A stretch of DNA of 64,000 bases from an uncultured cyanobacterium (GCA_963807635.1 CAWEDJ010000069.1:1-64000); one strand, 5' to 3'. Positions 2,913 through 21,141 are shown, counted from the first letter of the stretch. Program-made: numbers and translations. Notes: generated by a model not told the origin, from the sequence alone.

Positions 2913-5818
2913 CTAAAAACTGCGATCACGGATAATCCATTTCACCGCTTTGTCCCGACTCGCGGAAGCCAAGGTTTTACTATCGGGGAAATAACTCACA
3001 CTATTGACCGCAGATTGATGCCCGTTGAGGGTTTGGAGTAATTGTCCTGTGCCTACGTCCCACAATTTTACCGTTCCGTCAAAACTCGCGGTCGCCAAGG
3101 TTTTGCTATCGGGGGAATAACTCACACTCCACGCCGCATATTGATTCCCTCCCAAGGTTCGGAGTATTTTTCCCGTGCCTACGTCCCACAATTTTACCGT
3201 ATTGTCAGCACTCGTGGTCGCAAAGGTTTTGCTATCGGGGGAATAACTCACACTAGTGACTCTATTTTGCTCCTCTCCCAAGGTTTGGAGTTCTTTTCCC
3301 GTGCCTACGTCCCACAAATTTACCGTATCGTCATCACTAATGTTAGCACTCGTAGTCGCCAAGGTTTTGCCATCGGGGGCATAACTCACACTATTGACCC
3401 AAAGTTCACTCACTTTCAAGGTTCGGAGTACTTTTCCCATGCCTACGTCCCACAATTGTACTGTTCCGAACCCACCCGCGGGAAGCCAAGGTTTTACCAT
3501 CGGGGGAATAACTCACACTATTAACATTACTGACCGCATATTGATTCCCTCCCAAGGTTCGGAGTATTTTTCCCGTGCCTACGTCCCACAATTTTACCGT
3601 ATTGTCAGCACTCGTGGTCGCCAAGGTTTTGCTATCTGGAGAATAACTCACACTTATGGACCCATCTAAATCCCATTCCAATGTTAGGAGTACTTTTCCC
3701 GTGCCTAAGTCCCACAATTTTACCGTTTTTACCGTTTTGCCAACACTCGTGGTCGCCAAGGTTTTGCCATCGGGGGCATAAATCACACTCCAGACCTCAG
3801 ATTGATTCCCCTCCAAGGTTCGGAGTAATTTGCCCGTGTCTACGTCCCACAATGTTACCGTTCCGTCCTGACTCGCGGAAGCCAAGGTTTTGCCATCGGG
3901 AGCATAACTTACACTATTGACCACAGATTGATGCCCTTCCAAGGTGCGGAATACTTTTCCCGTGCCTACGTCCCACAATATTACTGTTATGCCCCCGCTC
4001 GTGGTCGCCAAGGTCTTGCCATCGGGGGCATAACTCATACTTCTAACCGCAGATTGATACCCTTCCAAGGTTCGCAGCACTTTCCCCGTGCCTACGTCCC
4101 ACAATGTTACCGTATTGTCGAACCCACTCGCGGAAGCCAAGGTTTTGCCATCAGGGGCATAACTCATACCCATGACCCAGGTTGATCTCCTTCCAATGTT
4201 CGGAGTAATTTGCCCGTGCTTACGTCCCACAACGTTACCGTATTGTCGTACCCATTCGCGGAAGCCAAGGTTTTGCCATCGGGGGCATAACTCACACGAT
4301 AGACCGAATCTTGATCTCCTTCCAAGGTTCGGAGTAATTTGCCCGTACCTACGTCCCACAATTTTATCGTTCCGTTTCCACTCGCAGCAGCCAAGGTTTT
4401 GCCATCGGGGGCATAACTCACACTATTGACCCCAAGTTCATTCACTTTCAAGGTTCGGAGTACTTTGCCCGTGCCTACGTCCCACAATTTTACCGTTCCG
4501 TCCCCACTCGCAGCAGCCAAGGTTTTGCCATCGGGGGCATAACTCACACTGTTGACCGCAAGTTCATTCACTTTCAAGGTTCGGAGTACTTTGCCCGTGC
4601 CTACGTCCCACAATTTTATCGTGCTGTCCCGACTCGCGGAAGCCAAGGTTTTGCCATCGGGGGCATAACTCATACTATAGACCGCAGATTGATGCCCTTC
4701 CAAGGTTCGGAGTAATTTTCCCGTGCCTACGTCCCACAATTTTATCGTTCTGTCCCGACTCGCAGAAGCCAAGGTTTTGCCATCGGGTGCATAACTCACA
4801 CTATTGACCTCAGATTGATGCCCTTCCAAGGTTCGGAGTACTTTGCCCGTGCCTACGTCCCACAATTTTACCGTTCTGTCCCGACTCGCAGAAGCCAAGG
4901 TTTTGCCATCGGGGCCATAACTCACACTATAGCCCGCAGATTGATGCCCTTCGAGGCGATTTTTTTCATTAACTTCCGTTGCCCCCACCTGAATATTGGT
5001 ATTTTCTAAATTATTTTGCGCTTCTATTGTTTTAAGCTCTGCACAACCAATTGCTGTCCTGCACCAACAATGGTAATCCCTAAAAAAATTAACCCTCGGC
5101 GAACAATTTGTTTTTGTTGTGTCTTCGCTTCGGCAACGTTTTGATTCGATTTTTCTATTTTTACTTCTGGTTTTTCCTTTGCTTTCTCCAAAATTAAAAC
5201 AGCCTGATGCTTTGCATATTCCATCTCACGGCTTGTTTTAAGGTAATTTATCTGTAACGCTGTTGGTTTTGGATCTTTATCCTCTGTGGCTTTTAACCAC
5301 TTCTCCCCATCACCTAACTCTTCACCGCGTAACAAAAATCCTTCTTTTCGTGCTTCGTTATCCCACTTCAAGGCTCGAACCAATACGTGGGTATGACCCT
5401 TAACATGGGCTATATCCAGATTCAGCGCATCGATCAACTCTTTAAACGATTGGTCAAAATTATCCGTATCCCGAAAAAATAACCAATTATGACTACTGAT
5501 CGCTTGATGAGCAGGATTTTCTTTCTCTAAAAGCTCGTAGGCATCTCGATACACAATCGGCAAAATCTGTTTATTGTACTTGACGGCGTGGTTAATCTCA
5601 TCCTGACAGACCTTAGAAGCCACAGAATCAGGACTAATCACAAAAACAAACGTATCAGCCCCTTCGATCCCCGATTCAATCTCCTTCCAGCATTCAGTTC
5701 CCTTGGCAATCCCTTCCCAATCAACCCAGGTTTCACGATTACTATTTTCCAAAGCCTCATACAAAATACGCACAAACTCTGAATTTTTACGAGAATAGGA
5801 AATAAAAACGTCAGACAT
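2913..5818 (-). CDS. TIR domain - transmembrane - WD40 repeat protein (split by ~3 frameshifts)
   Basis: N-terminal DVFISYSRKN...SPDSVASKVCQDEI TIR_2 domain, LLRGEEL helical region, hydrophobic segment, then ~16 WD40 repeats (VSYAPDGKTLASAS.D.TVKLWDV) in ORFs 4164-4988, 3406-4359 and 2913-3500. Confidence 0.85.
2940..4950 (-). repeat. Tandem ~126-bp coding repeats (WD40), ~16 units with high nucleotide identity
   Basis: Recurrent gtgcctacgtcccacaattttaccg and ccaaggttttgccatcgggggcataactcaca blocks at ~126-bp spacing. Confidence 0.95.
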
Positions 5819-11924: not shown

Positions 11925-12077
11925 ATGAAACTTTTTACCGCGATCGTTGAAAAGGATATAGATACGAATCTCTATGTCGGTTATGTAGTTGGAGAAGCTT
12001 TAATGAGAGCGATCGCCGAAGGTCTTGATGGTGAAAATGCTAGTCGTGAAGAAATTTTTACTGTATTATCTGAGTAA
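11925..12077 (+). pseudogene. 50-aa chimeric antitoxin remnant (HicB-like N-terminus)
   Basis: MKLFTAIVEKDIDTNLYVGYV resembles a HicB start; the remainder (ALMRAIAEGLDGENASREEIFTVLSE) resembles the tail of a different small antitoxin. Confidence 0.4.
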
Positions 12078-12090
12078 TCCCTAAAAAACT

Positions 12091-12113
12091 GTAGGGACGT
12101 AAGGCTTACGCCC
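12091..12113 (+). repeat. GTAG-type REP-like hairpin
   Basis: gtagggacgtaaggcttacgccc, an imperfect palindrome preceded by GTAG. Confidence 0.6.
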
Positions 12114-12135
12114 AAACCTAGCAAGGAGTTAGAGC

Positions 12136-12495
12136 ATGGAACCGTTGACGCTATTGGCTACAGGAGCCACGATTATTTTGACGGGAGCGTTGACCCGTTT
12201 GGGGGAGCTTTCTTTGGATGGTTCGGTTGAAAAACTGAAAAATTTAATTGCGGCGAAGTCTCCTGATACGTTGAAAAAGTTGCAATCTGCTAATCAAAAT
12301 CCTGCTTTGTTACCTGAAACGATTGAGGCAGTGGCGACTTTACTGGAAGATCCAGAGATGCAAAAAGTTGCGGAACAAGTGGTTAAGGAAAATGAATCTA
12401 ATTCTTACGTTATTAATCAATTTTCTGCTTTAGAAAAAATTCTCAATTTTGCTAATCGGGATATTAATATTGAGGAACAGAATATTACCTTTTGA
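12136..12495 (+). CDS. Small Bell-like helical effector with putative C-terminal amyloid signalling motif
   Basis: Strong RBS (aaggag), hydrophobic N-terminal helix (MEPLTLLATGATIILTGAL), helical body, N/Q/I-rich tail ...NRDINIEEQNITF; directly upstream of and in frame with an NLR. Confidence 0.6.
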   Translation: MEPLTLLATGATIILTGALTRLGELSLDGSVEKLKNLIAAKSPDTLKKLQSANQNPALLPETIEAVATLLEDPEMQKVAEQVVKENESNSYVINQFSALEKILNFANRDINIEEQNITF

Positions 12496-15103
12496 CTACA
12501 GCCGCCTGTTCAGGAGCAGGTTAAACAAAACCTTCACAATTTACCGAATAGTGGTGTCGCGCAATTTGTGGGACGTGATGATGTTTTAACGCAATTAGAT
12601 CAGCAATTACAGCAAGCTGATCGCGTGGCGATTTCCACTTTGACGGGCATGGGTGGCATTGGGAAGTCGGAGTTGGCTTTGCAGTACGCGTGGCAGGAAT
12701 GGAATAAAAAAACTTATTTGGGGGGAATTGCCGGGTTAACGGTGGCGGATGGTGATCCTGGGTTAAGTCTTTTAAGTTTTGCTCAGTTGCATTTAGGGTT
12801 AACGTTACCGACGGAAGGAGAATTAAGCGATCGGGTTCGTTTTGTTTGGCAACATTGGTTTAAGAATGAACAGGATCAAGGGTTAATTATTTTTGATGAT
12901 GTGCGGAATTATCAACAAATTAAAGCCTATTTACCGCCTCAACCAGAAAAACGCTTTAAGGTCATTATTACAACCCGCAATAAAAATTTATCAGCGACGA
13001 TTCAGACGTTACATTTAGAGCTTTTAGATCAGGAGCCAGCCTTAGATTTATTGCGTTCCTATGTGACGGATGGACGTATTGATCAACAGTTAGAACAAGC
13101 AAAATTACTCTGTCGAGATCTGGGTTATTTACCCTTAGCCTTGGAATTGGTAGCGCGATTATTAAGGCGACGGAAAAATTGGACAATTCAATCTATTCGA
13201 GAACGGTTAGCAGAAAAGGGATTAGCGGATCAAAGTTTAGTTATCAACCCGAAGTTTGATTCAGAAATGACCGCGTTCAATTCAGAAATTACCGCAGAAC
13301 AGGGAGTTAAAGCGGCTTTTGATTTGAGTTGGGAAGCATTAGATAGCAATGCTCAACAGTTGGCCGATGTATTTGAGCTTGTTTGCCCTCGCTCCCTTTT
13401 CTAAATTTTTAATTGATGCGTTAGTTACTGAGCAAGATCCTGATGACTTGGAGGAGTGGTTGACAGATAGTTTGGTTAATCTCAATTTAGTTAGCGATCT
13501 GGGAGATGATTGGTATGAATTGCATACGTTGATTCGGGTTTATCTTAGGGAAAAATTAGAAGACTCGCCGTTAAAAGAGGAAGCAAAACGCGCCTATGGT
13601 CGGGTGATGGTCAGTATTGCTCAAACGATTAAGCAGACTTTGACGTTAGCAGATATTGCTAATCTAGAGCCGTATATTGAGCATTTAAAAGTAGCGGCTG
13701 AGGAGTTTCATCAATGGTTAGAAGGAGAAGATTTAACCTGGCCTTTTGTGGGTTTAGGTCGTTTTTATGAAGCCCAGGGACTTTATCAGCAAGCAGTTCC
13801 CTATTTTGAACGCTGTTTAACCTTGAGTGAAGAACGTTTCGGGCGAAAACATCCAAAAGTGGCAACCAGTCTCAACAATCTGGCGAATCTTTATGAGTCC
13901 CAAGGGAAATACCCAAAAGCCGAACCTCTCTATCGGCGATCGCTGGCGATTGGGGAAAAGCAATTAGGAGAAAATCATCCTCAAGTGGCAACCAGTCTCA
14001 ACAATCTGGCGGGTCTTTATGAATCTCAAGGGAAATACGCAGAAGCCGAACCTCTCTATCGGCGATCGCTGGCGATTAGGGAAAAGCAATTAGGAGAAAA
14101 TCATCCTCAAGTGGCAACCAGTCTCAACAATCTGGCGGGTCTTTATGAATCTCAAGGGAAATACGCAGAAGCCGAACCTCTCTATCGGCGATCGCTGGCG
14201 ATTAGGGAAAAGCAATTAGGAGAAAATCATCCTCAAGTGGCAACCAGTCTCAACAATCTGGCGGGTCTTTATAAGTCCCAAGGGAAATACGCAGAAGCCG
14301 AACCTCTTATGGCGCGATCGCTGGCGATTTGGGAAAAGCAATTAGGAGAAAATCATCCTGATGTGGCAACCAGTCTCAATAATCTGGCGGCTCTTTATAA
14401 GTCCCAAGGGAAATACGCAGAAGCCGAACCTCTCTATGGGCGATCGCTGGCGATTTGGGAAAAGCAATTAGGAGAAAATCATCCTGATGTGGCAACCAGT
14501 CTCAACAATCTGGCGGCTCTTTATGAGTCCCAAGGGAAATACGCAGAAGCCGAACCTCTCTATCGGCGATCGCTGGCGATTTTGGAAAAGCAATTAGGAG
14601 AAAATCATCCTCAAGTGGCAACCAGTCTCAACAATCTGGCGGCTCTTTATGAGTCCCAAGGGAAATACGCAGAAGCCGAACCTCTTATGGCGCGATCGCT
14701 GGCGATTTTGGAAAAGCAATTAGGAGAAAATCATCCTCAAGTGGCAACCAGTCTCAACAATCTGGCGGCTCTTTATGAGTCCCAAGGGAAATACGCAGAA
14801 GCCGAACCTCTTATGGCGCGATCGCTGGCGATTAGGGAAAAGCAATTAGGAGAAAATCATCCTGATGTGGCAACCAGTCTCAACAATCTGGCGGCTCTTT
14901 ATTATGCTCAAGAGAAATATGAAGAAGCCGAACCGCTTTACCAAAGAGCGATTGCCATTTTCTCAGAAAAATTAGGCGAAAATCACCCCAACACGCAAAC
15001 AGTAATCATGAATTATTATCTGATGCTTTCCCAACTTCCCGACGAAGAATTAAACCAACGCTTTGACCCCGAAACGGTGGAAATGTTGCATAACCTACGA
15101 TAA
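12496..15103 (+). CDS. NLR-like NB-ARC + TPR protein (no convincing own start; frameshift near 13365)
   Basis: HNLP...FVGRDD, Walker A GMGGIGKS, Walker B IIFDDV, VIITTR, GYLPLALEL, YELHTLIR, then kinesin-light-chain-type TPRs (HP.VATSLNNLA.LY). Confidence 0.9.
13855..14990 (+). repeat. Nine tandem 126-bp coding repeats (42-aa TPR units), near-identical
   Basis: gtggcaaccagtctcaacaatctggcg recurs every 126 bp; eight units contain a HIP1 site. Confidence 0.95.
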
Positions 15104-15108
15104 GCATT

Positions 15109-15212
15109 GTAGGGGCTTGGTCTCCAAGTCCAATCATTTAAAGGTTGAGAAACCCATAATTCAAGAATTTGTTAACCATTAAAGTTAAAGGATTTGGAAA
15201 CCAAACCCCTAC
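15109..15212. repeat. Inverted pair of GTAG-type REP-like hairpins (REPIN-like)
   Basis: gtaggggcttggtctccaagtcc ... ggatttggaaaccaaacccctac. Confidence 0.6.
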
Positions 15213-19886: not shown

Positions 19887-21141
19887 TCAGTCACAACTAT
19901 TTTTAGCCAATAACGCCGTCCCATACGGCCGCTTCTGTATAACAAGATGAACAAACAGAAACCCCTAAATAGCGTTCTCGAATTCTTTGCCAAATCAAAT
20001 TTTTTGCCCCACCTCCTGCCGTATAAACCTGGGTTAAAGGAGTCGCCCCCAAAGCTTGCAATTTCTGATAACCCAAGGCTTCAATGCGGGCAATTCCCTC
20101 TAATAAACCCTGTAAAAAATCCATAGGATTCTCAGGACGAGGCTCTAATTGGGGTAATAAATGGGGATCATTAATGGGAAAGCAATCGCCTGGTGTGAGA
20201 AGAGGATAATAATTTAATTGACTAACAGATTGGGGATTAATTTGTGCGCTATATTGAATTAATTCTCCCTCAGTAAAAAAGTGTTTTAAAACATTTCCCC
20301 CTGTATTAGAAGCCCCTCCCGTTAACCATAGGTTACCCAAACGATGGCTATAAACTCCTGAAGCTAAATCTTCAATGGGCGTTGTACTCAATAACTTTAA
20401 AACTAAGGTTGACCCCAAAGAAGTCACCGCTTCCCCAGGTTCTTTTGCCTTACTCGCTAAAAAGGCCGCAATACTATCCGTTGTTCCCGTACAGATTAGA
20501 CAATCAGGGTTTAAATTGAATTGTTGCGCGATCGCCGTTTCAATTTTTCTAACAACAGTACCAGGAGCCAAAACTTGAGGTAATAAATCAAAAAAACTCT
20601 GATTCGTTAACCAACTAGGATATTTTAAATTAACAACATCATAACCCAGTTTTAAAGCATTATGATAATCACTGATGCCCAACTTTCCGTGTAACAAAAA
20701 AGCTAACCAATCCGCTTGATGTAAAAAATAAACCGCTTGCTTAAAATAGGATTGCTCAGACCACCAAATTAATTTGGCTAGACTAGAACTCGCACTTAAC
20801 GTCAAATGATTCGGCGGAACAAATTGACTTAACTTTGTTTGAATACTTTTTCCTCTTCCATCATGATATAAAATAGGCTCAGTGATAGGATTCCCCCGAT
20901 TATCACAGAGTAATACCGTTGAAGAAGTTCCGTTAATCGCGATCGCCTGAATTGATCGGATCAGATCCTGGGGAATATTAGCGAACAGTTCAAATAAAGA
21001 TTGTTTCCAGATTTCAATGCAATTTGACGAAAAAGATTCAGAAAAATTTATCGCAGTTTCTAAGTGAATATTTTCCTCTAAATCAATCACAACAGCACGG
21101 CAACCTGATGTTCCAAAATCAATTCCTAAAAATGTTTTCAT
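19887..21141 (-). CDS. FGGY-family carbohydrate kinase (frameshift near 19927)
   Basis: GIDFGTSG, GTTDSIAA, GGASNTGG, TAGGGAKN; the expected C-terminus EAA-YGTALLA is in the adjacent frame. Confidence 0.88.

Follow-up and report, generated by a model that had tools for sequence, protein, structure and literature searches.

Can one bacterial gene supply both an abundant effector protein and the rare receptor that would set it off? The question is raised by a locus on a 64,000-nucleotide stretch of DNA from an uncultured cyanobacterium (GCA_963807635.1, CAWEDJ010000069.1:1-64000; hereafter the window), where a small open reading frame (ORF) (12136-12495; 119 aa, C-terminal end ...NRDINIEEQNITF) stands directly before a NOD-like receptor (NLR)-type protein. 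As a sequence-only reading of the window had pointed out, the TGA at 12493-12495 ends the small ORF while the same frame runs on to an NB-ARC domain (PF00931, E 4e-17): CTA lies directly 3' of the TGA, the unbroken frame reads LQPPVQEQVKQNLHNLPNSGVAQFVGR before entering NB-ARC, and the first in-frame ATG, GTG or TTG is the GTG at 12568, within the FVGR motif. At a probability of roughly three in four, we favour a single recoded gene, in which programmed readthrough of the TGA would yield a free Bell-like effector and a rare effector-motif-NLR fusion acting as nucleator. What we observed at this and related loci is a stop that is conserved without any conserved start, together with purifying selection, a covarying structure tied to the stop and interchange of junction layouts.

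The stop codon before start-less NLRs is conserved

An NB-ARC entry profile from which the linker was excluded was run on 89 genomes of the family and gave 110 matches in 47/89 genomes; all 110 loci were retrieved. An in-frame stop lay 13-15 codons before the model start at 32 of the 110 NLR loci, and at these short-linker loci it was always TGA (32/32; window locus included, 10 genera, 24 distinct linkers, not independent). By contrast, 60 NLRs that start at an ATG of their own have TAA (34), TAG (16) or TGA (10) as the closest stop upstream. An in-frame ORF of 115-159 codons preceded the TGA at 30/32 loci (L040 and L058 are broken upstream), and the linker lacked ATG, GTG and TTG at 31/32 (L104 has GTG first). 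No conserved near-cognate start was found after the TGA at the 32 loci, the first codon being CTG (15), CTA (8), ATA (3), AAG (2) or TTA, GTC, GTG and CTC (1 each). The codon before the stop also varies among loci.

An ortholog from the same genus (G004) keeps TGA-CTA with ~25 codons upstream replaced by a different tail, and in DNA runs X2, X3 and X11 the contig match begins exactly at 12493, with still other tails in front. Because the ortholog and the three DNA runs keep the junction despite these other tails, the TGA that the sequence-only reading relied on is neither chance nor an assembly error. In the window genome, TGACTA ends 0/2081 long ORFs and TGAC ends 70/2081. Judged by the ratio of nonsynonymous to synonymous substitution rates (dN/dS), both flanks of the TGA are under purifying selection: dN/dS was 0.13-0.29 downstream of the TGA (codons 13-250; 11 homologous locus pairs, dS saturating) and 0.14-0.27 for the small ORF in 7/8 pairs. 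Conservation of the stop between two selected flanks had been anticipated, and it holds.

As an unbiased check, a stop-free 25-nt pattern was used on metagenomes and gave at least 118 loci. Among the matches listed, an in-frame TGA precedes 48/50 loci with GC up to 0.49 (the remaining two have no downstream ORF) and 0/68 GC-richer loci, by eye chance matches; this GC split was set after the table was seen.

A covarying pseudoknot lies 8 nt after the stop

RNAalifold, applied to 24 linkers, predicted a hairpin of 5 bp at +9..+26, its pairs showing double-sided changes. The hairpin loop pairs with +36..+39 (at least 4 pairs in 46/56 distinct elements), exceeding swaps of loops and downstream parts between sequences (p 0.001; L104 and L123, with longer loops, were left out). 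In alignment A5, comprising the 56 distinct elements and all with an 8-nt spacer, an H-type pseudoknot model had 93.5% of 504 cells paired and 49 double-sided changes; 0/500 shuffles were equally high and slid controls reached at most 53%, in tests that kinship inflates. Pair +12/+23 occurs as UA (26), CG (23), UG (4) and GC (2), and pair +17/+39 as GC (24), AU (12), GU (7) and CG (5). Stem 1 precedes the NLR at 30/32 TGA loci versus 3/77 other NLRs. The element matches no Rfam family and apparently is undescribed.

The sequence-only reading had taken UGA-CUA for the signal. That context is indeed present in the window and in G004, but CTA follows the TGA at only 8/32 loci, and we take the main cis signal to be the pseudoknot 8 nt after the stop, not UGA-CUA.

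The element is widespread and serves unrelated partners

A TGA-plus-hairpin pattern gave 27 matches in 21/301 phylum genomes (3 for a reversed-pattern control), with the layout of small ORF, TGA and in-frame ORF at 26/27. A covariance model, which includes the TGA and hence favours it, gave 62 matches in 40/151 genomes. Those at E<0.001 (n = 49, all inspected) had TGA in 46 cases, TAG in 2 and no stop in 1 (L332); among the 13 weaker matches, 10 were inspected and proved to be 3 real and 7 chance. Verified loci fall in 17 cyanobacterial families, one of them outside the order. TAG replaces TGA at L329 and L337 (G201), in a layout of hydrolase-like ORF, pseudoknot and NB-ARC, and at L334-L336 (G201) the loop is 3 nt shorter. 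A plasmid search gave no DNA match, and 6/6 pattern matches on viral contigs were without small ORF-NLR context.

The window genome (G000) bears four copies, at C69:12493 (the window locus), C50:43177, C105:62954 and C42:31195. The C50 copy leads into a 926-codon NB-ARC frame and the C105 copy (minus strand) into 783 codons; both have long intact NTPase frames, which makes them more suitable for tests than the window copy. The C42 copy leads into a 97-codon domain that matched no known family.

Upstream partners are mostly 115-175 aa, start with MEP[LI][TS] or similar and end in varied N/Q/G/I-rich tails; some are alpha/beta-hydrolase-like (L143, L196; weak PGAP1/LCAT matches). Downstream partners include NB-ARC, other domains and proteins that we take to be NACHT-like from their motifs. 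On neither side is the element confined to one kind of partner: it also occurs with effectors that are not Bell and with partners that are not NB-ARC.

Junction types interchange on closely related NLRs

A tree of 133 NB-ARC parts (identical rows merged) held 54 TGA junctions, 32 proteins with their own ATG and a short N-terminus, 32 long fusions, 8 candidate -1 slips and 7 unclassed. The junction changes between TGA and non-TGA 21 times on this tree, in which many nodes have low support and recombination is likely. Near-identical NLRs differ in whether they carry TGA, their own ATG plus a motif copy, or an A_AAA_AAG -1 slip. At L061 and L047, two of the three non-TGA NLRs preceded by stem 1, own ATG and motif are followed by ATT, a sense codon, at the TGA position and nearly the same linker, which shows that motif, linker and NB-ARC do occur naturally as one continuous protein; the stem has decayed at loci of this kind. 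At L332 a Bell-like gene ends in TAA; after it come an ATG and a motif duplication, and what is left of the pseudoknot has a spacer that has decayed. Homologs with a separate start and their own motif, or with an uninterrupted junction, had been named beforehand as counting against readthrough. Both exist, but on near-identical NLRs, and they therefore support the need of the NLR for an N-terminal motif.

At 8/110 loci (L031, L055, L052, L110, L111, L112, L116 and L117) the small ORF ends in A_AAA_AAG plus TAG or TAA, and a start-less NLR lies in the -1 frame. The upstream helical ORF is 166-168 aa (L112 is called shorter), and most of the loci have a Shine-Dalgarno (SD)-like run upstream. These loci are candidates for a programmed -1 frameshift doing the same job; L054 and L098 have a similar overlap without the exact A_AAA_AAG site. 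No natural Bell-motif-NLR fusion was among 3 matches from 1633 longer candidates, which is weak evidence.

The small protein and its tail

The model of the small protein is helical (~100 aa; mean predicted local distance difference test score, pLDDT, 62), with a low-confidence, mostly unstructured tail, and relatives share its MEP[LI][TS]-type start. N-terminal motif, size, helical model and context suggest a Bell-like cell-death effector. The small ORF had no match in Pfam, NCBIfam, PADLOC or PDB, the best fold search reached Z 5.0 and Foldseek gave nothing at E<=0.001. PF20701 (HetE-N) occurs on 12-20% of members of Atlas neighbour clusters and is a lead only.

The window tail is similar to the N-termini of L038 and L045, two NLRs with their own start (scores 55 and 54; 0/300 shuffles as high). 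By this similarity and by composition it is a ~25-aa N/Q/G/I/V-rich motif of the kind found in Bell-BASS pairs; across 30 upstream ORF tails, N makes up 16%, I 11%, Q 9% and G 9%. The NLR side of the window locus has no second motif copy, there being no start and a 13-codon linker only.

A readthrough model

We infer readthrough itself, the inserted residue, the product ratio, amyloid templating, membrane killing and a role in defence. Most ribosomes would terminate at the UGA, giving free Bell-like protein with an amyloid-like tail. A minority would be slowed by the pseudoknot 8 nt downstream, at the mRNA entry channel, and would insert a near-cognate amino acid, probably Trp, to make effector-motif-X-NB-ARC-TPR, a product of 812 codons in the intact ortholog (TPR, tetratricopeptide repeat). 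According to PMC11126739, the leakiest of the E. coli stop codons is TGA, which is decoded chiefly as Trp. The rate of readthrough would be low and fixed. On sensing of an invader by the TPRs, NB-ARC would oligomerise and cluster the fusion motifs; these would act as templates for the identical motif of the plentiful free protein, and the converted Bell-like domains would kill the cell. A single DNA copy of the motif would be used by both partners, and therefore motifs and effectors could be swapped before the TGA without loss of compatibility.

The cyanobacterial message, to judge from its comparative record, probably makes both a free protein and a rare protein-sensor fusion. Each comparative test that was run supported this interpretation, which the sequence-only reading had proposed, and the NLR has no conserved start. 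We also think it likely, with a little less assurance, that the loci represent a family of bacterial readthrough pseudoknots that is both new and mobile, and a third NLR architecture across cyanobacteria, in which the ratio of free amyloid-gated effector to nucleator would be fixed, cassettes would be swapped at the stop, and stress or infection might alter the leak rate and thereby the cell-death threshold. It would be the first structure-stimulated, non-selenocysteine readthrough in bacterial chromosomal genes known to us.

Several findings weigh against readthrough. Many TGA loci are close kin, and one very close Bell pair has dN/dS 0.75 on 9 changes. Some stem-1 bases were fixed by the retrieval patterns; a held-out set of 16 elements keeps the free pairs of stem 1 (16/16 and 15/16), though only at a shuffle p of about 0.07. 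Stem 2 pairs less completely (87%), and 16/56 elements have alternative registers for it. The Bell assignment comes without a profile or fold match, and the window copy itself is frameshifted. Contigs of RNA run X20 (share 0.05) cover NB-ARC parts and none spans the junction. In E. coli reporters it is G, not C, after the stop that raises readthrough, as far as the available text of PMC11126739 goes. To these is added the near-cognate first codon found at many loci, which bears on reinitiation.

Alternatives to readthrough with templating

Ribosomes might instead terminate at the UGA and restart, aided by the RNA, at a non-canonical codon beyond it, giving a separate NLR without an N-terminal motif. 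We consider this unlikely overall, while reinitiation could operate at individual loci because a near-cognate start (CTG, ATA or GTG) is the first codon after the TGA at 19/32. An SD-like GGA(G) run within the hairpin loop would also suit it, but the GGA is accounted for by stem 2 pairing; the first codon is CTA, TTA, GTC, CTC or AAG at 13/32 loci, and L034, L035 and L119 have no near-cognate start within 26 codons. Reinitiation further leaves the lack of TAA at the site unexplained, and the NLR it produces would be without the motif that own-start relatives bear. An overlapping NTGA start was separately rejected: the base before the TGA is C at 17 loci, T at 12 and A at 3, and the -1 frame it would open is not the NLR frame.

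Quite unlikely, in our estimate, is real readthrough that dispenses with amyloid templating, the fusion acting directly as an all-in-one effector-NLR or the free protein serving as decoy or regulator. That the element also lies behind ORFs with no obvious amyloid tail (L032; the hydrolase-like L196) and before a 97-aa non-NLR domain (G000:C42, L200, L269) fits such a scheme. Against it, N/Q/G/I-rich tails end most upstream ORFs, and the same tail family stands at the N-termini of own-start NLRs, as in published BASS pairs.

Some other recoding at the site, by A-to-I editing of UGA or UAG to Trp, selenocysteine insertion or hopping over the stop, is very unlikely. The occurrence of TGA and TAG, never TAA, is what single-step editing would give, but we know of no ADAR-like mRNA editor in bacteria; hopping needs a conserved pre-stop codon, which varies here. 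Decoding of UGA directed by the selenocysteine insertion sequence (SECIS) in bacteria also uses a structure just 3' of the UGA. It needs SelA, SelB and tRNA-Sec and cannot use TAG, unlike the TAG-tolerant cyanobacterial element. Selenocysteine was rejected because SelA (0/1 own genome, 0/5 near-complete carriers) and tRNA-Sec (none over the cut-off in the own genome; noise only in a relaxed ARAGORN scan) were not found in the genomes searched.

An inherited nonsense mutation or deletion scar, with the NLR half a silent pseudogene or recombination reservoir, is scarcely credible: the window frameshift, the Trp-to-Gly change at 12733 and a few other broken copies (e.g. L302, L329) would fit it, but long open frames with dN/dS 0.13-0.29 (at saturating dS) and the recurrence of stop and covarying structure across 17 families, before unrelated partners, exclude the nonsense mutation that the sequence-only reading had kept as an alternative.

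Proteins with W at the junction (P0083, P0085 and P0087-P0089) were set aside. They occur only on contigs of ~1.1 kb or less, long-contig members of their cluster are called as a 55-aa fragment, and locus-type DNA has TGA (L200, L269, G000:C42). They are probably gene calls reading TGA as Trp and so were not used as evidence.

Relation to known systems

In multicellular bacteria, Bell-BASS/NLR pairs have two motif copies in two genes or form an all-in-one fusion (10.1101/2020.01.06.895854). Going by the accessible part of that preprint, the window locus has in common with them a small, probably helical protein that bears a ~25-aa N/Q/G/I-rich C-terminal motif and is encoded just before an NB-ARC or NACHT protein carrying TPRs; here the collinear, adjacent partner has PF00931 and TPR_10/12. 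The pairs are also frequent in cyanobacteria, and the motif is found behind alpha/beta-hydrolases as well (same source). Unlike these pairs, our locus has one motif copy, an in-frame stop, a pseudoknot and a start-less NLR. The pairs are defined by a second motif copy, on an NLR with its own start; our locus lacks it, so we do not file it as a canonical Bell-BASS pair. It would be a variant of known Bell-BASS/NLR immunity whose stop-readthrough layout is in no paper that we found, and this layout is invisible to any screen that requires a motif at an annotated NLR N-terminus. The literature search, whose scope left out most subscription journals and preprint supplements, gave no report of readthrough in these amyloid/NLR systems; 'readthrough', 'stop codon' and 'frameshift' occur 0 times in 10.1101/2020.01.06.895854, and the readthrough term 0 times in 10.1101/2024.11.07.622273, PMC7159879 and PMC8195603.

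Bab/Agp of E. coli (10.1101/2024.11.07.622273) has a Bell-related effector with a 'MEPIS'-type N-terminal helix and an amyloid motif shared with its receptor. It causes abortive infection and offers a model for how the window system might act. Bab/Agp differs in having two genes, two motif copies (BASS11) and a receptor of TPR-GreA/B-C-PIN rather than NB-ARC type, and the accessible part of the source mentions no recoding.

The junction is also like that of murine leukaemia virus (MuLV) gag-pol, with a stop, an 8-nt spacer and a compact pseudoknot giving an abundant short and a rare fused product (PMC3159437, in its accessible part). Like MuLV, the cyanobacterial loci have a conserved, presumably leaky stop in frame, coding sequence on either side and a covarying structure ~8 nt 3' of the stop. 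The UGA-CUR context is common to the window locus and alphavirus type II UGA-CUA readthrough (PMC3159437). MuLV and the alphaviruses differ in being eukaryotic viruses on eukaryotic ribosomes, and have no sequence relation to the cyanobacterial element, which is smaller than the MuLV pseudoknot (5+4 bp) and lies in bacterial chromosomal genes. For bacterial ribosomes, the Q-beta coat/A1 pair is a phage case of UGA read as sense (PMC3159437).

The element offers a 45-nt candidate for pseudoknot-stimulated readthrough on bacterial ribosomes, in a MuLV-like position and with dozens of natural variants, TAG included. For immunity, one motif with two products would be a third layout beside the two-gene and all-in-one NLRs, settling motif compatibility and stoichiometry together while leaving effector and motif freely swappable. 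For annotation, 32/110 of the related NLRs sampled in this family, or about 3 in 10, lack a true start; annotators would label them truncated or pseudo, which hides their signalling ends from paired-motif screens. Several copies per bloom-forming cyanobacterium may bear on phage-host dynamics.

The window copy and its surroundings

The features of the window locus are collected in Table 1. The sequence-only reading had a single frame extending to 15103; instead the NLR frame closes at 13402-13404, and an additional G at 13366 shifts the TPRs (ORF 13349-15103) out of it. The G004 ortholog (DNA 93% identical over 1501 nt) is without the extra base, its frame running for 696 codons after the TGA, and the base is missing from 4/4 runs, drawn only as contigs from four studies (three of the runs DNA, the fourth RNA). 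The extra G is therefore private to this assembly or strain. At 12733, where the window has the Trp-to-Gly change, three DNA runs have T, restoring the conserved Trp.

Table 1. Features of the locus in the window (plus strand; coordinates from the first nucleotide of the window).
Feature	Position	Strand	Remarks
SD-like AAGGAG	12123..12128	+	7 nt 5' of small-ORF ATG; judged from sequence
Putative Bell-like helical domain, residues 1-91	12136..12408	+	MEPLT start, hydrophobic first helix
N/Q/I-rich C-terminal tail, residues 92-119	12409..12492	+	BASS-like putative amyloid motif, swappable among relatives
In-frame TGA, presumed readthrough codon	12493..12495	+	conserved among relatives
Spacer CTA CAG CC, 8 nt, stop to RNA structure	12496..12503	+	spacing common to 56 distinct elements
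Predicted H-type pseudoknot	12504..12534	+	covariation
Pseudoknot stem 1	12504-12508 with 12517-12521	+	
Pseudoknot stem 2	12512-12515 with 12531-12534	+	3/4 pairs in window copy
Pseudoknot A-rich loop	12522-12530	+	
Linker and NB-ARC, without own start	12496..13404	+	Pfam match 12580-13179; early closure 13402-13404
Extra G, frame-shifting	13366..13366	+	not in G004 ortholog nor 4/4 sequencing runs
NLR remainder: helical region and TPR sensor	13367..15103	+	TPR_12 and TPR_10

GGCC adjoins the single-base insertions at 13366 and at 19926, the latter shifting the end of a sugar-kinase-like gene, and the change at 12733 is CCTGG-to-CCGGG. Both patterns are, we presume, typical of long-read errors at methylated sites. 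Between the window assembly and the ortholog pieces, 2/3 coding single-base indels flank GGCC; a genome-wide GGCC-indel test was weak (rank 5 of 4-mers, z 2.35).

TPR_12 and TPR_10 each match 10 stretches of the window NLR. The sensor contains nine near-identical units of 42 aa (126 nt) at 13853-14986, and their variation at few fixed positions per unit suggests that the units are reshuffled among the repeats.

Palindromic repeats of the form GTAGGG...CCC(TAC) lie on both sides of the locus (12089-12118 and 15108-15212); the upstream one has many copies in the window genome and related genomes and resembles repetitive extragenic palindromic (REP) elements. Further upstream is a 50-codon ORF (11925-12077, plus strand) that looks like an internally deleted antitoxin, presumably HicB-like (no Pfam match), with an 88-codon frame at the matching place in L005 and L024. 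Toxin-antitoxin genes often adjoin such loci (L004, L006, L036, L061). At 3406-5818 on the minus strand lies what we take to be a TIR-like ORF followed by WD40 repeats broken across several frames.

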